DNA of 64,000 bases from Escherichia coli O157:H7 (GCF_013167455.1 NZ_CP038328.1), one strand, 5' to 3'; shown: positions 14,215 to 19,582, numbered from the stretch's first letter. Translations and numbers: made by a program. The notes: generated by a model not told the origin, from the letters alone.

Positions 14215-14946
14215 ATGAAAAAGTTAGTTCTTGCCGCATTACTGGCATCCTGTGCGTTCGGCGCTTCTGCCGCAGAGAAAATCAATTTTGGCGTATCAGC
14301 GACCTATCCGCCGTTCGAGTCGATGGATGCCAATAACCAGATCGTCGGCTTTGATATCGACCTAGCAAAAGCGTTATGCAAACAGATGCAGGCAGAATGT
14401 ACTTTTACCAATCACGCGTTCGACAGCCTGATCCCGTCACTGAAATTCAGGAAATATGACGCCGTAATCTCCGGTATGGATATCACACCAGATCGTAGCA
14501 AGCAGGTATCGTTCACCACGCCCTATTACGAAAACTCAGCCGTCGTGATTGCCAAAAAAGATACCTACAAAACGTTTGCCGACCTGAAAGGCAAACGCAT
14601 TGGGATGGAAAACGGTACTACGCACCAGAAATATATTCAGGATCAGCACCCGGAAGTGAAAACGGTCTCCTATGACAGTTATCAAAATGCCTTTATCGAT
14701 CTGAAAAATAGCCGTATTGATGGCGTATTTGGTGACACTGCGGTGGTTAATGAATGGCTGAAAACCAATCCGCAACTGGGCGTTGCTACTGAAAAAGTGA
14801 CCGATCCGCAATACTTTGGCACCGGTCTGGGTATCGCTGTACGTCCGGATAACAAAGCTCTGCTGGAAAAACTGAATAACGCGCTGGCAGCAATTAAAGC
14901 TGACGGTACATATCAACAAATCAGCGATCAGTGGTTCCCGCAATAA
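14215..14946 (+). CDS. artJ: Arginine-binding periplasmic protein 2
   Basis: MKKLVLAALLASCAFGASAA signal peptide, 243 aa, paralogue of ArtI. Confidence 0.92.
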   Translation: MKKLVLAALLASCAFGASAAEKINFGVSATYPPFESMDANNQIVGFDIDLAKALCKQMQAECTFTNHAFDSLIPSLKFRKYDAVISGMDITPDRSKQVSFTTPYYENSAVVIAKKDTYKTFADLKGKRIGMENGTTHQKYIQDQHPEVKTVSYDSYQNAFIDLKNSRIDGVFGDTAVVNEWLKTNPQLGVATEKVTDPQYFGTGLGIAVRPDNKALLEKLNNALAAIKADGTYQQISDQWFPQ

Positions 14947-14956
14947 TTATTCATTT

Positions 14957-14985
14957 GCCGGAGTGGGCGAACACCCACTCCGGCA
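14957..14985. terminator. Bidirectional hairpin between artJ and the sulfatase gene
   Basis: ccggagtggg-cgaaca-cccactccgg perfect 10-bp stem between convergent genes. Confidence 0.5.
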
Positions 14986-14996
14986 AAATCACTTCT

Positions 14997-16478
14997 CTAC
15001 GCTAATCCCAGGCGCTGAAACTGCTCTGGCGGCGCATCATTATCTTTCATCAACTGAATCAGCAACGCGATCATCCGGGACTCGATCACATCATCATGAA
15101 TCGGATGTAGCTGCTGCGGATCGTTTTGCAGATCAAACAGCAAATGACCAAACTGATTCAACCCCTTATATTTTTCCTGTGCCGGGATGCGTAATACCTG
15201 TAACCCTTTGGTAAAACGAAACGGTGGGGCCAGCGATAAAGCCCGCATCTCATCCACCGGATAGCGGCTGTTCATTTTGCAGGACATCAACGTGTAGTTG
15301 GCAATATCATCCTCACGCCCCGGCAGCGCTGCACGCATATACACATAACGCCCATCAGTTACGTTAGCATGACCACTGAAAACACCAAACATCGCCGAGC
15401 TGCGTACTGGTTCATCGTGACTGACCGTTTTCGCCAGCGGTTGCCCCTGCACATCGGGCGGCACTGGCTGTTGAAAAAAGTCATACAACGTTGGCGCCCA
15501 GTCGATCATTTGTACCAGTGCCTGTCGCCGCTCTCCTTTTACACCACTGCGCGGGTTCCAGATAAACAACGGATTATTGGCAACTTCGTTGTAATAAGGC
15601 ATCTGGTTTTTCGCCCACCAGCCATGCTCACCGAGTAAAAAGCCGTGGTCAGTGCCGACAATCAGCATGGTATCTCGCCACAGATCGTGCTCATCCATCA
15701 GGTCGAGAATGCGCCCCAGGTTGCGATCGCACATCGACACCAGCGAACGATACCGGCAACGGATGTGCTCCACGGCCTCGTCGCTTTCCTGCACCCGGCC
15801 ACGCGGCCAGTCATAATGCGGTCCATCCCAGTTATCTTCATACAAGGAAAGATACTCTTCCGTTGTGTGAAACGGCTCGTGCGGATCAAACGTTTCGATC
15901 TGCAATAACCAGTTATCTTCCGCGTGATTTTTGTGGATAAAGGCACAGCCTGCATCAAACACTTTAGTTTGTGGAAAATCCGCTTCCTGCTGAATATATT
16001 CCCGGTTTGCCCAGTCATGGCGCCACAGACCAGAAACACCGCCACCGGTCTGCTTTTGCGGCACCCGTAGCACCTCGGGAATAGGCGGTTGCGCAACGCT
16101 TGCATGCCAGTGATCGCCTTCCTGTCCGCGCACAATCTCCCACGAACTGTAGCGATTATGATAATTCCCGCCGCCATCTTCCCAGTAATGCAAATGATCG
16201 CTTATCAGGTGGGTATAGATCCCCGCCTTTTTAAGCAGCTCCGGCATGGAATCGTCAAACGGTTCTAACGGCCCCCACTCCCGATGCAGGAAGTTACATC
16301 GCCCGGTATGCAACTCCCGCCGGGCAGGCATACACGGCATACTGCCGACGTAACTGTTTTCAAAGGTGGCGGCATGAGCCGCCAGACGTTGGAAATTAGG
16401 CGCTTTGGTTAACGCATCGCCATAAGGTGGCAGATAACGTTTATTCAGACTATCGAACAGCAGAATAATCGCTCTCAT
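14997..16478 (-). CDS. Cys-type sulfatase (formylglycine-dependent), no signal peptide, predicted cytoplasmic
   Basis: 493-aa ORF with the sulfatase signature C-x-P-x-R...TGR (SMPCMPARRELHTGR) near the N-terminus; N-terminus MRAIILLFDSLNKRY lacks a signal sequence; absent from this position in K-12. Confidence 0.8.
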   Translation of the reverse strand: MRAIILLFDSLNKRYLPPYGDALTKAPNFQRLAAHAATFENSYVGSMPCMPARRELHTGRCNFLHREWGPLEPFDDSMPELLKKAGIYTHLISDHLHYWEDGGGNYHNRYSSWEIVRGQEGDHWHASVAQPPIPEVLRVPQKQTGGGVSGLWRHDWANREYIQQEADFPQTKVFDAGCAFIHKNHAEDNWLLQIETFDPHEPFHTTEEYLSLYEDNWDGPHYDWPRGRVQESDEAVEHIRCRYRSLVSMCDRNLGRILDLMDEHDLWRDTMLIVGTDHGFLLGEHGWWAKNQMPYYNEVANNPLFIWNPRSGVKGERRQALVQMIDWAPTLYDFFQQPVPPDVQGQPLAKTVSHDEPVRSSAMFGVFSGHANVTDGRYVYMRAALPGREDDIANYTLMSCKMNSRYPVDEMRALSLAPPFRFTKGLQVLRIPAQEKYKGLNQFGHLLFDLQNDPQQLHPIHDDVIESRMIALLIQLMKDNDAPPEQFQRLGLA

Positions 16479-16489
16479 TACGCCCTACC

Positions 16490-16810
16490 TTATTGATTAA
16501 TTAAATGCGGAAAATGTTGCTGAACCACTTCATAAATTTGCTGACCAATAGTTTCACCGTCCATAATATTCTCTATCGGAATCAAATATTGCCCTTGTTT
16601 CGGGTCAAGACTAACCACATCGAGTAATTTTTTGGAAATAGCAAAAATATCCGCCCAGTCGGTAAATCCGCCGACTTCACCTGCGGCGGTATGTTCCATT
16701 TCAACTTTGAAATCATATTTGGTCAGCGCTTTTTTAACGACCGTTTGTAACATAACGCTACTGCCTACACCGTAACCACAGACAAACAGAATATTAATTG
16801 TATCTTTCAT
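16490..16810 (-). CDS. PTS EIIB component (ascorbate/SgaB-UlaB-like family)
   Basis: 106-aa protein with N-terminal ILFVCGYGVGSS phospho-Cys loop typical of UlaB/SgaB-type IIB. Confidence 0.7.
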   Translation of the reverse strand: MKDTINILFVCGYGVGSSVMLQTVVKKALTKYDFKVEMEHTAAGEVGGFTDWADIFAISKKLLDVVSLDPKQGQYLIPIENIMDGETIGQQIYEVVQQHFPHLINQ

Positions 16811-16831
16811 TTTTAAACCCTTAATATTTAA

Positions 16832-18175
16832 TTAACCCGCGTAAGGACCAAGATGGAATGTTGCAGCGATAAATTTCAGAACTTCACAAATAGCAGGCCA
16901 TACGGTTGCCCAGTCAAATATTCCTGTCCAGCCGACGCCATTTTCAGCAAGCCCGGTTAACGGAATAGCCCACACCGTACCGAAGGTCTGAATAATACCC
17001 AGCAAGAACGTACAGATAATTACGGAACGGTATCCGCCCATGCGGTTTGCTAATACGCCAATTGGACCGCCAGAGAAAAACAGAGGTACAAAGCCAGGCA
17101 ATACCATAATTGGGCTGTGAACCAGTAATAAGATCCCCATCGAAAAAATGGTGCCAAAAGTACAGAAGACGAAGCCTAACGTTGCGGCATTGGGTGAAAA
17201 AGGTAACAGCGCTGCAACATCGACAGCAGGAATAGCGTTAGGAATAAAGCGATCTTGCCAGCCTTTAAACGAACCGTTAATTTCGCCCACCATCATGCGC
17301 ACACCCTGCAGCAGAATGACCATATACATGGAGAACTGTAAGCCAAGGTTGATGATATAGATGTACCAGGGCTTGCCTTTCGCCATTAACTGGACATTAT
17401 CGATACCCGTTGATAGCAAGAAACCACCGACAAACAGCGTCATCACAATGGCGATAGCCGTTACGTTATGGTTAAAAATCGCCAGCCACCCGGGAAGTTT
17501 CAGGTTTTCAGCATCGTGCTTTTCAGGGTCACCAAATTTATGGGCGAATTTGGAGAAAAACCACAATCCCAACATCTGGTTATGAGCAATGGTAAAACCG
17601 GCATCTTTGGTAACTTTGGCAATGGGCTTAACAATGAGCGTGGTGGAGAACGCCCAGAATACACCCGTTAATATTCCGGCAATAATAATGGATGTAGTCC
17701 AGCTAAAACCCAGCCAAAAGACAATCAACCATAATACCGCCTGAGAATGTGAAACACCGGTATTCCCTGTCAAAAATATCCCTTTGGCACCAGTATACCG
17801 ACCAAATAATACCAGCAGCAGGTTGGTAAAAAACGCCAGTACAAATACATACCCGACATAACCAAAATTATCCCCCAATGCAATTTGCGTTGCCGCTTTC
17901 ATTGCGTAGGAATCCATTAAATATCCGTGAACACCATAGGCTTTACTTACGGCTTCTGCTACCGGTTTAAATGTTGCGGAAAACTGGAAACCACCAAATA
18001 ACACCATCATTAATCCCACCATGGCGCTGACCATGCCGGTAATAATTTTTATTGGCGATTTCTTATCAAGGGCATAACCAATACCCACCAGCAAACCAAT
18101 TAAAATTGCCGGTTCAGTTAAAAACGTTTGAATAACATCTATGAATTTGGCAAACATCGTCGGAACGCCCTCCAT
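16832..18175 (-). CDS. PTS EIIC permease (ascorbate/SgaT-UlaA-like family)
   Basis: 447-aa polytopic membrane protein adjacent to the IIB gene; start may be the Met 18 nt downstream (MFAKFIDV...). Confidence 0.7.
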   Translation of the reverse strand: MEGVPTMFAKFIDVIQTFLTEPAILIGLLVGIGYALDKKSPIKIITGMVSAMVGLMMVLFGGFQFSATFKPVAEAVSKAYGVHGYLMDSYAMKAATQIALGDNFGYVGYVFVLAFFTNLLLVLFGRYTGAKGIFLTGNTGVSHSQAVLWLIVFWLGFSWTTSIIIAGILTGVFWAFSTTLIVKPIAKVTKDAGFTIAHNQMLGLWFFSKFAHKFGDPEKHDAENLKLPGWLAIFNHNVTAIAIVMTLFVGGFLLSTGIDNVQLMAKGKPWYIYIINLGLQFSMYMVILLQGVRMMVGEINGSFKGWQDRFIPNAIPAVDVAALLPFSPNAATLGFVFCTFGTIFSMGILLLVHSPIMVLPGFVPLFFSGGPIGVLANRMGGYRSVIICTFLLGIIQTFGTVWAIPLTGLAENGVGWTGIFDWATVWPAICEVLKFIAATFHLGPYAG

Positions 18176-18361
18176 ACGCGTACATTTCCGTTGTCAATGC
18201 ATGAACCTTCTGCTGACGTTAATAATGTCTCAGGAAATTTTGTGTTTCGCTAAGCAATGCCTCTGTATGTATTCGGTAAGTGCACTGTAGTAATCAAAAC
18301 AGTTCAATTAAAGATCTTATTTGATTATTTGTGATTTGATTTGCAAAAATAGAGCAATATA

Positions 18362-18404
18362 TAACCGTGATCGATCGGTTATTATTAATCGATCGATCAC
18401 GATT
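18362..18404. promoter_or_regulatory. GATC-rich inverted repeat upstream of the PTS/sulfatase operon (candidate operator or Dam-sensitive site)
   Basis: aaccgtgatcgatcggtt-N7-aatcgatcgatcacgatt: two 18-bp arms (16/18 complementary), each with a GATCGATC core, i.e. four GATC sites within ~40 bp. Confidence 0.4.
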
Positions 18405-18454
18405 ATTATTTTGGATGGATGTATGCCGAGGTGATATTGATTTGAATGATGTAT

Positions 18455-19582
18455 TTACATTTTTACCAGCAGCGTCAGCACTTCATAGTGCGCGGTGTGC
18501 GGGAACATATCAAAAAGCTGTACCCGTTCGATGCGGTAACCTGGCAGTTCGCGGATATCTTTCGCCATGGTTTGGGCGTTACAGCTGGAGTAGATAATAA
18601 AACGCGGTGCCATCGTTGAGAGATAATCACACAGCGGTTTACCAATGCCGCGGCGCGGCGGGTTAACCAGCACCAGCTCCGGCACCTCCCCCTGAGCGGT
18701 GGCAAACTGAGTGGAGTCCAGCGCCTGAAATTGCAGACGCGTTAAGCCCAGTTCAGCGGCTGACTGCTTTGCACAGGCAATGGCCTCTAGCGCAATTTCG
18801 ATCCCGGTTAACTGCATGTCAGGCGTCGCGCAGTGTAAACCAAAGCCCCCCACACCGCAGAACAGATCCCACATATGTTTAACCGGCAGCTGTCGTACCC
18901 AGTCGCGCGCGGTAGCGTACAGCTGGCTGGCGACCGCCGGATTAGTCTGGAAGAAACTTTGCGGACGGATCCACAGCGGCACATCGTTAAAACGCTCTAC
19001 CAGCGCCTGTTGTTCGGTCAGGTAGATCTCCGTCTCCCCTTCCATAATCGCCATATGTACCGGCTGAATATTGACGGTGATAACTTTTAGCTGCGGCAAT
19101 TGTGCCTGTAACCACGGCAATGCCTTACGCAGTTGTGCTAGTTTGGTTTCAGAACGCAGTACAAAGCGCAGCATCATGCCGCCATCGCTCTGGCTTTCAG
19201 TCAGCAGAATGTATTTCAGTTCGCCACGCTTACGCGCCACGTTGTAGGGCGTTAACCCCGCTCGGGCGATAAACGGTTTTAGCGCCGCAAAAACGGGCGC
19301 AAATGAGGCAGGATAAAGCGGGCAGTCACAAAGGTCTTCCGGTGTGCCGTCGCGATGCAGCATACCGAGCAGTGGTTTTTCAACGCTACCACTCACCACC
19401 ATTTTGGCTTTATTACGAAACCCTTGTTCCGGGCCTGACACCGGCGCGCACCATTCCTCAACCGGAAAGTCGGCGAGCAGATTTTTAAGATCGGCGGTTT
19501 TAGCGGAGAGTTGCTCTGGAATCGGCTGCGTTATCCACTGACAGGAACGACAGCGACCCGCGTCGTAAAGTGCGCACTGCAT
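18455..19582 (-). CDS. rlmC: 23S rRNA (uracil747-C5)-methyltransferase
   Basis: 375-aa ORF with N-terminal Cys cluster (CxxxxxCxxC) and SAM-MTase domain; RumB/RlmC length. Confidence 0.9.

Follow-up and report, generated by a model that had tools for sequence, protein, structure and literature searches.

A phosphotransferase system linked to a predicted cytoplasmic sulfatase in Escherichia coli O157:H7, with L-ascorbate 2-sulfate as a candidate substrate

In Escherichia coli K-12, the phosphotransferase system (PTS) UlaABC makes L-ascorbate-6-phosphate from ascorbate, UlaG, UlaD, UlaE and UlaF convert this compound to D-xylulose-5-phosphate, and L-ascorbate-6-phosphate controls the activity of UlaR in vitro (PMC5934670). 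A 2011 survey of the genomic contexts of UlaG recorded a sulfatase “inserted” in the ula regulon of Sebaldella termitidis and left it unexplained (PMC3219644). Cys-type sulfatases can be matured in E. coli by an unidentified system (PMC6189696). Here, we analyze a 64,000-nucleotide stretch of the E. coli O157:H7 chromosome (hereafter, the window), which is 100% identical to strain PV15-279, and concentrate on an islet of three genes between artJ and rlmC, labeled in RefSeq as a sulfatase, a PTS IIB and a PTS IIC, where a transporter resembling UlaA and UlaB adjoins a sulfatase predicted to be cytoplasmic.

In strain Sakai, taking artJ to be ECs0943, the islet corresponds to ECs0940-0942, with ECs0940 encoding IIC; the EDL933 tags Z1087-1089 were extrapolated from the Sakai numbering, and the Salmonella orthologues are STM0884-0886. 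The literature searched by tag and topic contained no functional study of these genes under any of the three series (the tags ECs0940 and ECs0941 themselves were not queried); they appear as list entries and in a single-nucleotide polymorphism panel. The original prediction, made from the DNA alone, did not count the coupling of a PTS to a sulfatase among the established E. coli pathways.

A PTS-sulfatase module found in three phyla

The islet and the core genes that bound it are arranged as follows (window coordinates):

14215-14946, plus strand: artJ, core gene at the islet edge; homology to K-12 ends at its stop codon
14997-16478, minus strand: predicted leaderless Cys-type (formylglycine) S1 sulfatase, a 493-residue open reading frame (ORF) with PF00884 and SGSH_C
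16299-16334, minus strand: formylglycine signature CMPARRELHTGR, residues 49-60 of the translated sulfatase; the Cys49 codon is 16332-16334
16490-16810, minus strand: PTS EIIB, UlaB-like, PF02302, 106-residue ORF
16832-18175, minus strand: PTS EIIC of the L-ascorbate (UlaA/SgaT) family, a UlaA paralogue, 447-residue ORF
18455-19582, minus strand: rlmC, core gene at the other edge, co-oriented with the islet; homology to K-12 ends at its stop codon

All three islet genes lie on the minus strand, in the order IIC, IIB, sulfatase, with gaps of 21 bp between IIC and IIB and 11 bp between IIB and the sulfatase. The 3508 bp that separate the stop codons of artJ and rlmC hold no gene for an EIIA, a regulator or a maturase.

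Protein searches detected orthologues of the sulfatase in Salmonella, Enterobacter, Kluyvera and Yokenella (78-86% identity) and many more in Bacillota (61-68%). In Escherichia, Salmonella, Enterobacter and Yokenella, the genes for IIC, IIB and the sulfatase follow one another on one strand without interruption; outside the enterobacteria, the sulfatase is linked to IIC/IIB in 18 distinct loci from Bacillaceae, Lachnospiraceae, Oscillospiraceae, Peptoniphilaceae and Olsenella. Most of these 18 are likewise contiguous and co-oriented; in one (L017), IIC and IIB lie about 2.5 kb downstream of the sulfatase. The synteny of the triad spans Enterobacteriaceae, Bacillota and Actinomycetota, that is, three phyla.

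The sulfatase family as a whole is represented in at least 594 species (one genome per species scanned), and 80 of these loci were re-analyzed. The association with the PTS follows sequence similarity closely: where the sulfatase shares 60% identity or more with the E. coli enzyme, IIC/IIB are encoded directly upstream in 13 of 15 loci, the remaining two having the PTS 2.5 kb downstream and no PTS nearby (L016), respectively, whereas no PTS was found beside any of the 65 sulfatases with 53-59% identity. These PTS-free relatives (L026-L090), which are also leaderless, come from Paenibacillus, Streptomyces and other actinomycetes, Chloroflexota, Planctomycetota and Lokiarchaeota, and are often encoded next to CUT1 ABC transporters, GH3 and ROK kinase genes, two-component systems of the YesM/YesN type, and a formylglycine-generating enzyme (FGE).

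Outside the enterobacteria, the module is usually accompanied by a DeoR regulator, an EIIA, an FGE or an anaerobic sulfatase-maturating enzyme (anSME), and anion exporters of the ChrA/TauE type. The cassette of Clostridium porci, for example, reads DeoR-IIC-IIB-sulfatase-EIIA, and two protein clusters (P0044 and P0082) consist of sulfatase-EIIA fusions, both with an intact phospho-His motif in the EIIA part. A radical-SAM anSME above the TIGR03942 cut-off adjoins the module in four loci (L013, L014, L022 and L101), an FGE-type protein in two (L015 and L023), and ChrA-like pairs or TauE exporters in four (L013, L014, L017 and L101). Because maturases and anion exporters recur next to the module, the product of 14997-16478 is predicted to be a genuine formylglycine sulfatase that releases its anion in the cytoplasm. 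No cognate EIIA (PF00359) was identified in the islet or in any enterobacterial copy examined (Escherichia, Salmonella, Enterobacter and Yokenella), and the lack of EIIA, regulator and maturase appears to be peculiar to the enterobacterial copies, rather than a property of the system.

Taken together, the triad in three phyla, the EIIA-sulfatase fusions and the co-located maturases and exporters uphold the coupling of PTS and sulfatase that the original prediction proposed from a single locus, as well as its description of the locus itself: three co-oriented, tightly spaced genes, IIC and IIB of the SgaT/SgaB (UlaA/UlaB) type, and no EIIA, regulator or maturase, a lack that now extends to all enterobacterial copies examined. 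We consider it very probable that the islet encodes an ascorbate-family PTS combined with a cytoplasmic formylglycine sulfatase.

Several observations on the surroundings of the module bear mention. In Enterobacter hormaechei, an arylsulfate sulfotransferase gene (AssT-like, PF05935; L092 2466-3881) is immediately upstream of IIC-IIB-sulfatase, and in Yokenella, a 73-residue remnant of an AssT-like gene adjoins the sulfatase (L094 7542-7763); this neighbor may represent a second link to sulfate-ester metabolism. In another locus (L101 1-5293), a Man-family PTS (EIIAB, EIIC and EIID), a different sulfatase of 454 residues, a GntR regulator, an anSME and TauE lie beside the ascorbate-type module. 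Gut Bacillota seem to couple a PTS to a sulfatase quite generally, with at least three PTS families represented. Finally, an uncharacterized protein of about 340 residues (c44, 345 residues) adjoins the sulfatase in two Clostridia loci (L025 6290-7327 and L016 4140-5159); it has no NCBIfam match and only weak FG-GAP similarity in Pfam. In one locus, where UlaD was not found, a protein of this type sits between the sulfatase and UlaF.

Ascorbate catabolism and the candidate substrate

In several bacteria, the module is embedded in ascorbate catabolism gene clusters. In Neobacillus niacini, EIIA, IIC, IIB, the sulfatase, UlaG, UlaD, UlaE and UlaF are encoded in this order on one strand, next to a divergent FGE gene; all four Ula enzymes score above their NCBIfam cut-offs, and UlaG is 70% identical to its E. 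coli counterpart. In Bacillus sp. SD088, IIC-IIB-sulfatase is divergent from DeoR-EIIA-UlaG-UlaD-UlaE-UlaF-PtsI. A Clostridium metagenome-assembled genome (MAG) carries UlaG-EIIA-IIC-IIB-sulfatase-x-UlaF-UlaE, after which come a split transketolase and Fsa/Tal. In an Oscillospiraceae MAG, UlaF, UlaE and UlaG lie within 5 kb of the module; in Olsenella, only UlaE and UlaF are present. In Bacillus sp. FJAT-50079, UlaG-UlaD-UlaE-UlaF are followed by two IIC-IIB-sulfatase units. The second of these (L023 3692-6908) is divergent, with an IIC that is 31% identical to the E. coli protein and carries K139, P195 and K288, and with a 463-residue sulfatase of another type, an arrangement that suggests two different sulfated substrates feeding one pathway. 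Overall, the module lies in or next to a full ulaG/D/E/F cluster in 5-6 of the 18 non-enterobacterial species, and ula catabolic genes are present within 9 kb in 6 of the 18 non-enterobacterial PTS-linked loci, compared to none of the 65 loci without a PTS. Furthermore, the module EIIAs of Bacillota share 36-42% identity with UlaC, and weak similarity connects the DeoR regulators with UlaR. In E. coli, the ula genes are not linked to the islet (about 3.5 Mb away in K-12 coordinates), but the regulon is present in 5425 of 5426 genomes, so that UlaC and UlaG, UlaD, UlaE and UlaF would be available to the islet in trans.

IIC scores 964 bits against the NCBIfam equivalog NF009550 (cut-off 583) and is 39% identical to K-12 UlaA over 432 residues; its closest matches, at 68-69%, are IICs from the ula-embedded loci. 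IIB shares 29% identity with UlaB and scores 43.6 bits against the UlaB model NF007586, under the cut-off of 138; in an alignment, its Cys11 (FVCGYGVGSS) falls on the UlaB phospho-Cys (AVCGNGQGSS). Precomputed Pfam assignments of the Salmonella orthologues are PF03611 (EIIC-GAT) and PF02302 (PTS_IIB). The residues of UlaA that contact ascorbate have been listed (PMC6048161), and comparison with this list shows that IIC retains Y87, H194, D314 and F362 along with the mechanistic G58, G286 and R288, differs conservatively at three positions (S/T86, V/I358 and M/I410), and carries the changes H135N, I136T, Q139S, Q195N and S59G. The latter five are systematic: in every sulfatase-linked IIC, H135, I136, Q139, Q195 and S59 are replaced by the smaller N, T/A, S/A, N and G, respectively. 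Smaller pocket residues would be expected if an ascorbate-shaped ligand bears an extra substituent. Judging from these features, IIC appears to be a paralogue of UlaA and not the ascorbate transporter itself.

The sulfatase matches PF00884 (E 6e-28) and SGSH_C in Pfam searches. Its signature, C49-M-P-A-R53 followed by RELHTGR (CMPARRELHTGR), is the canonical formylglycine motif read in the original prediction, and C49, P51, R53, D9, H200, D277, H278 and K290 are invariant among 23 orthologues; conservation of the motif Cys had been set beforehand as one of the points on which that reading could fail. The claim that a signal peptide is missing also stands. The protein opens directly with the first beta-strand of the fold, residues 4-6 lining up with positions 29-32 in secreted sulfatases and position 12 in the cytoplasmic choline sulfatase, and for this reason, we predict a cytoplasmic enzyme lacking a leader peptide. 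The AlphaFold2 (AF2) model has a predicted TM-score (pTM) of 0.84, with low confidence in the active-site loops, and the top Foldseek matches in the PDB are all S1 sulfatases (probability 1.0, 14-19% identity), scattered over many subfamilies, so that specificity is not readable from the structure. No S1 subfamily of characterized specificity fits the enzyme either: all NCBIfam equivalogs score far under cut-off, including a sub-threshold match to PehA, and the PDB matches are weak by fold and by sequence (best E 6e-23, partial). Orthology with K-12 YidJ was considered and rejected, given the 23% identity between the two. Within the PTS-linked clade, the sulfatases share E67, H123, R226, K436 and an insertion at 141-148; H123, R226, K436 and the insertion could form a phosphate-binding site.

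Measurements on 9004 human sera found L-ascorbate 2-sulfate in 8891 (PMC11322087), and the compound also occurs in bovine liver (PMC13028232); it is thus a regular animal metabolite. Among the possible sulfated forms, we favor it because it is the simplest compound that would yield L-ascorbate-6-phosphate after 6-phosphorylation and desulfation. A sulfated ascorbate is preferred in the first place because the module's relatives lie within complete ulaG/D/E/F clusters and because IIC keeps part of the UlaA pocket. In the proposed scheme, IIC would bind a sulfated ascorbate-like substrate, most probably L-ascorbate 2-sulfate, which would be phosphorylated at O6 during translocation, with the phosphate passing from EI to HPr, to an EIIA, and to Cys11 of IIB. 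The EIIA employed in E. coli would be UlaC, the closest paralogue of the module EIIAs of other bacteria. The sulfatase, matured at Cys49 by the Cys-type formylglycine-forming activity of E. coli, would then remove the 2-sulfate to give L-ascorbate-6-phosphate, which probably induces the ula regulon and which, going by the operons of other bacteria, would pass through UlaG, UlaD, UlaE and UlaF of the core regulon to D-xylulose-5-phosphate.

We give about even chances to this model as a whole, in which the enterobacterial genes are a stripped-down form of a widespread catabolic module. The identification of the substrate specifically as L-ascorbate 2-sulfate, drawn from gene neighborhood alone, stands at even odds at best. 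Still more tentative is the broadest statement, namely, that the islet and its relatives in gut Bacillota represent a new pathway of L-ascorbate 2-sulfate utilization via a 2-sulfo, 6-phospho intermediate, with UlaC borrowed and the sulfatase a native client of the E. coli Cys-type activity.

Several observations weigh against the ascorbate-based model. IIC scores 321 bits against the UlaA equivalog NF006919, under the cut-off of 380, and 4-5 of the 11 ascorbate-contact residues differ from those of UlaA; on these grounds, a non-ascorbate substrate is possible. There is no adjacent ula gene in 12 of the 18 non-enterobacterial loci or in any of the Enterobacteriaceae, and the role of UlaC as the EIIA of the islet is an assumption. 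The solved sulfatases nearest by sequence are GlcNAc-6-O-sulfatases and choline sulfatases, at E values of only about 1e-23, and the ABC transporter, GH3 and ROK context of the relatives with 53-59% identity points to sulfated glycosides for that branch. Formylglycine formation in E. coli is variable, ranging from 0 to 100% for heterologous enzymes (PMC6189696). In addition, no UlaR operator was found upstream of the islet in a local alignment of its 279-bp leader with the ulaG/ulaA intergenic region, whose score was reached by 178 of 1000 shuffles, and a shared-word search of the leader against the ulaG/ulaA and ulaR upstream regions did no better than with shuffled sequence.

Two other classes of substrate have to be considered. 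A sulfated monosaccharide or amino sugar from host mucin or glycosaminoglycans (sulfates of Gal, GalNAc or GlcNAc, or N-sulfoglucosamine) would, once phosphorylated and desulfated, yield a common hexose or hexosamine phosphate and call for no dedicated downstream enzymes, in line with the minimal cassettes (DeoR, IIC, IIB, sulfatase and EIIA, and no catabolic gene) of most gut Clostridia. One locus is located beside a lacto-N-biose phosphorylase cluster and another beside a Man-family PTS with a second sulfatase, and in Streptococcus pneumoniae, an island combining a cellobiose-type PTS with a sulfatase, whose substrate is unknown, aids virulence (PMC3283741). However, the transporter belongs to the ascorbate family and not to the Glc, Man or Lac families that handle hexoses and hexosamines, a 6-O-sulfated hexose could not be phosphorylated at O6, and UlaG together with the epimerases lies beside the module in five loci, compared to none with nag, aga or gal genes. 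The best PDB sequence matches, to S1_11 GlcNAc-6-O-sulfatases, would fit a host-glycan sugar but are weak and partial (E 1e-23; 14-19% identity by fold). We regard such a substrate as unlikely, yet deserving of attention. Thus, the import of a sulfated compound by the PTS, as envisaged in the original prediction, fits our results, but the hexoses and hexosamines of host glycans named there are less well supported than sulfated ascorbate.

Less probable by a wide measure is that the enzyme is a formylglycine-dependent phosphatase or phosphonate monoester hydrolase, acting, for example, on ascorbate 2-phosphate or another phospho-ester imported by the PTS. The superfamily does include phosphonate monoester hydrolases and promiscuous phosphatases, the former being among the PDB matches, the sub-threshold NCBIfam match is to PehA, and K-12 YidJ is annotated as “sulfatase/phosphatase”, but the strongest matches are all sulfatases, and the repeatedly adjacent ChrA-like and TauE-type exporters fit the disposal of sulfate and not that of phosphate. 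Moreover, we know of no natural occurrence of ascorbate 2-phosphate as a metabolite.

Ancestry and expression of the islet

The islet is present in 566 of 5426 complete E. coli genomes, always on the chromosome and in a single copy. Its alleles fall into two classes: one, at least 99% identical, accounts for 411 genomes (O157:H7, O55:H7, O145:H28 and others), and the other, near 91%, for 155; in H53, a representative of the latter class, it occupies the same site as in O157. The rlmC/artJ junction of Salmonella enterica and S. arizonae is occupied by the same trio, in Yokenella the module adjoins artJ, and in E. hormaechei it is located elsewhere in the chromosome, beside yidE-ibpBA. When O157 is compared with Salmonella, synonymous divergence (pS) stands at 0.64 for both IIC and rlmC and at 0.76 for artJ. 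The ratio of nonsynonymous to synonymous divergence (pN/pS) between the two E. coli alleles, which differ by 9% at the DNA level, is 0.013 for IIC, 0.048 for IIB and 0.065 for the sulfatase; against Salmonella, it is 0.04-0.09, as low as or lower than in the flanking core genes. The shared site in Salmonella, the pS equal to that of the flanking genes and the low pN/pS support the conclusion that the islet is ancestral to Escherichia and Salmonella, was inherited vertically, and was lost in K-12 and in about 90% of E. coli. The same comparisons of sequences support functional genes under strong purifying selection.

As stated in the original prediction, rlmC and artJ are adjacent in K-12, where 198 bp lie between them. 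This spacer (L098 2147-2344) contains two terminator-like hairpins around repeats of the repetitive extragenic palindromic/bacterial interspersed mosaic element (REP/BIME) type and has no similarity to the ends of the O157 spacer, homology stopping exactly at both stop codons; in K-12, the REP sequence occupies the site of the deleted operon. Loss is still going on in some lineages: an IS421 insertion sequence (IS) splits the sulfatase gene in NZ_OZ282453.1 (H51), and IS1A has entered the islet in NZ_CP083585.1 (H65).

The further claim that some 3.4 kb had been inserted in O157 did not hold up. A recently acquired genomic island of the O157 type could explain the absence of the genes from K-12 and most E. 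coli and their different chromosomal place in Enterobacter, and the closest non-enterobacterial relatives are from Bacillota (60-69% identity), which makes an ancient transfer between phyla likely. Nevertheless, the marks of a horizontal island are missing: no integrase or other mobility gene, tRNA, IS or direct repeat flanks the islet, the GC content is ordinary (47.6% compared to 50.4% for the window), synonymous divergence equals that of the flanking genes, the site is shared with S. enterica and S. arizonae (with Yokenella sharing the artJ side), and the unrelated REP/BIME spacer of K-12 indicates replacement or deletion. We consider recent acquisition very improbable. A cryptic enterobacterial remnant, nonfunctional after losing EIIA, regulator and maturase and heading for deletion, appears just as improbable. 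This possibility accords with the absence of the islet from about 90% of complete E. coli genomes, the occasional IS insertions and the lack of the three accessory genes in every enterobacterial copy, but it is at odds with the pN/pS values between the E. coli alleles and against Salmonella, the intact reading frames in the copies examined, the conservation of the active-site Cys in IIB and of the sulfatase's catalytic residues, and a putative promoter block kept in four genera. Ancestry followed by widespread loss, then, is the history that we adopt.

The features that could govern expression of the islet are the following:

18288-18349, minus strand: conserved upstream block of 62 bp, a putative promoter/operator, from an alignment of four genera
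18330-18345, minus strand: CRP-like site TGCAA-N6-TCACA, inside the conserved block
18366-18401, no strand assigned: palindrome CGTGATCGATCG-N12-CGATCGATCACG, perfect 12+12, 36 bp, just downstream of rlmC
14957-14984, no strand assigned: G+C-rich hairpin between the convergent sulfatase and artJ genes, from sequence inspection

The leader upstream of IIC is 279 bp long (18176-18454), and the block at 18288-18349 is the only part of it kept in Escherichia, Salmonella, Yokenella and Enterobacter, despite the differing flanking genes; it is the putative promoter/operator of the module. The palindrome at 18366-18401 is kept in Escherichia and Salmonella only, the module leaders of Yokenella and Enterobacter lacking it; it is probably an rlmC terminator or a local element, and could be a protein-binding site. 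At the other end, the sulfatase gene is separated from the convergent artJ by 50 bp, and the hairpin at 14957-14984 is likely to end the transcripts of both; it has no T-run on either side and, hence, was not called by the terminator scan. An Rfam scan of 14800-18600 detected no RNA family, and thus, no riboswitch or leader resembling a ribonucleic antiterminator (RAT). A second ATG at 18157, behind GGAGG, lies 6 codons after the annotated start of IIC (ATG at 18175), and the Enterobacter and Yokenella IIC genes appear to begin at its equivalent; the O157 annotation of IIC may be 6 codons too long, with 18157 as the true start.

Two reports on Salmonella touch on expression. A sigma-54 site was mapped by ChIP-chip inside STM0884, which is named “ulaA” in that study (PMC3844500). 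Its O157 counterpart (17139-17156, minus strand, inside IIC) matches at 15 of 18 bases, a level reached in 11 of 100 shuffles, and, being also intragenic, was not taken as a regulatory site. Expression of STM0884 shifts with that of Salmonella pathogenicity island 2 (SPI-2) genes in avirulent S. Typhimurium regulator mutants (PMC2639726), a listing that may point to expression of the module in settings relevant to infection.

Elsewhere in the window, a frameshifted pentapeptide-repeat gene of 1.77 kb (minus strand, 7902-9667) is annotated by RefSeq in the O157 genome between ybjQ and ybjP. K-12 is not known to have a gene at this position, and 7902-9667 may be another lineage-specific segment.

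Implications and comparison with known systems

If the proposed pathway is true, the capacity to use the sulfated vitamin C of animal blood, urine and liver would distinguish O157:H7, O55:H7, O145:H28 and Salmonella from K-12-like E. coli, and the module would provide an example of group translocation followed by cytoplasmic desulfation. The sulfatase itself would be a cytoplasmic Cys-type enzyme encoded naturally on the chromosome of an organism without FGE, and a sulfatase-dependent growth phenotype would offer a genetic handle on the formylglycine-forming system of E. coli. The locus also corrects an easy misreading: what looks like an “O-island” is apparently an ancestral segment that most E. 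coli lost.

With regard to sulfatases, the islet enzyme shares with YidJ, AtsA of Pseudomonas aeruginosa and BetC of the S1 family the CxPxR signature, the metal-binding and catalytic residues, the fold and the leaderless cytoplasmic location, and its relatives are associated with FGE or anSME, as are other S1 sulfatases. Unlike them, it belongs to a tight PTS-linked clade (at least 60% identity across phyla); its identity to YidJ is only 23%, and to any enzyme of solved structure 14-19%. The yidJ-yidK pair of K-12, a cytoplasmic glycosulfatase cluster with a secondary transporter, offers a parallel in logic, in that a small sulfated molecule enters the cell and loses its sulfate to a Cys-type enzyme in the cytoplasm; the difference is that uptake by the symporter involves no phosphorylation, whereas the substrate of the islet sulfatase would be a sulfate and a phosphate ester at once. 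The S. pneumoniae island, with its ROK protein, cellobiose-type PTS, sulfatase and maturase (PMC3283741), resembles the module in joining a PTS to a leaderless sulfatase and a maturase and in its role in host fitness, but it employs a PTS of the Lac/cellobiose family (the corresponding PTS in L101 is of the Man family) instead of the ascorbate family, involves another sulfatase subfamily, and has no ula link.

The closest system remains UlaABC (TC 4.A.7). The transporter family and the order of IIC and IIB are the same, the residues of the pivot and of phosphoryl transfer (G58, G286, R288 and the Cys of IIB) and part of the ascorbate pocket are kept in the islet proteins, the EIIAs and DeoR regulators of the module in other taxa are UlaC- and UlaR-like, and the full ula operons of several species contain the module beside UlaABC or in its place. 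The enterobacterial islet departs from this pattern in lacking its own EIIA, regulator and catabolic genes. Beyond that, the module differs from UlaABC in the five systematically smaller pocket residues, in an IIC with an NCBIfam equivalog of its own and, above all, in the formylglycine sulfatase that forms its integral fourth component.

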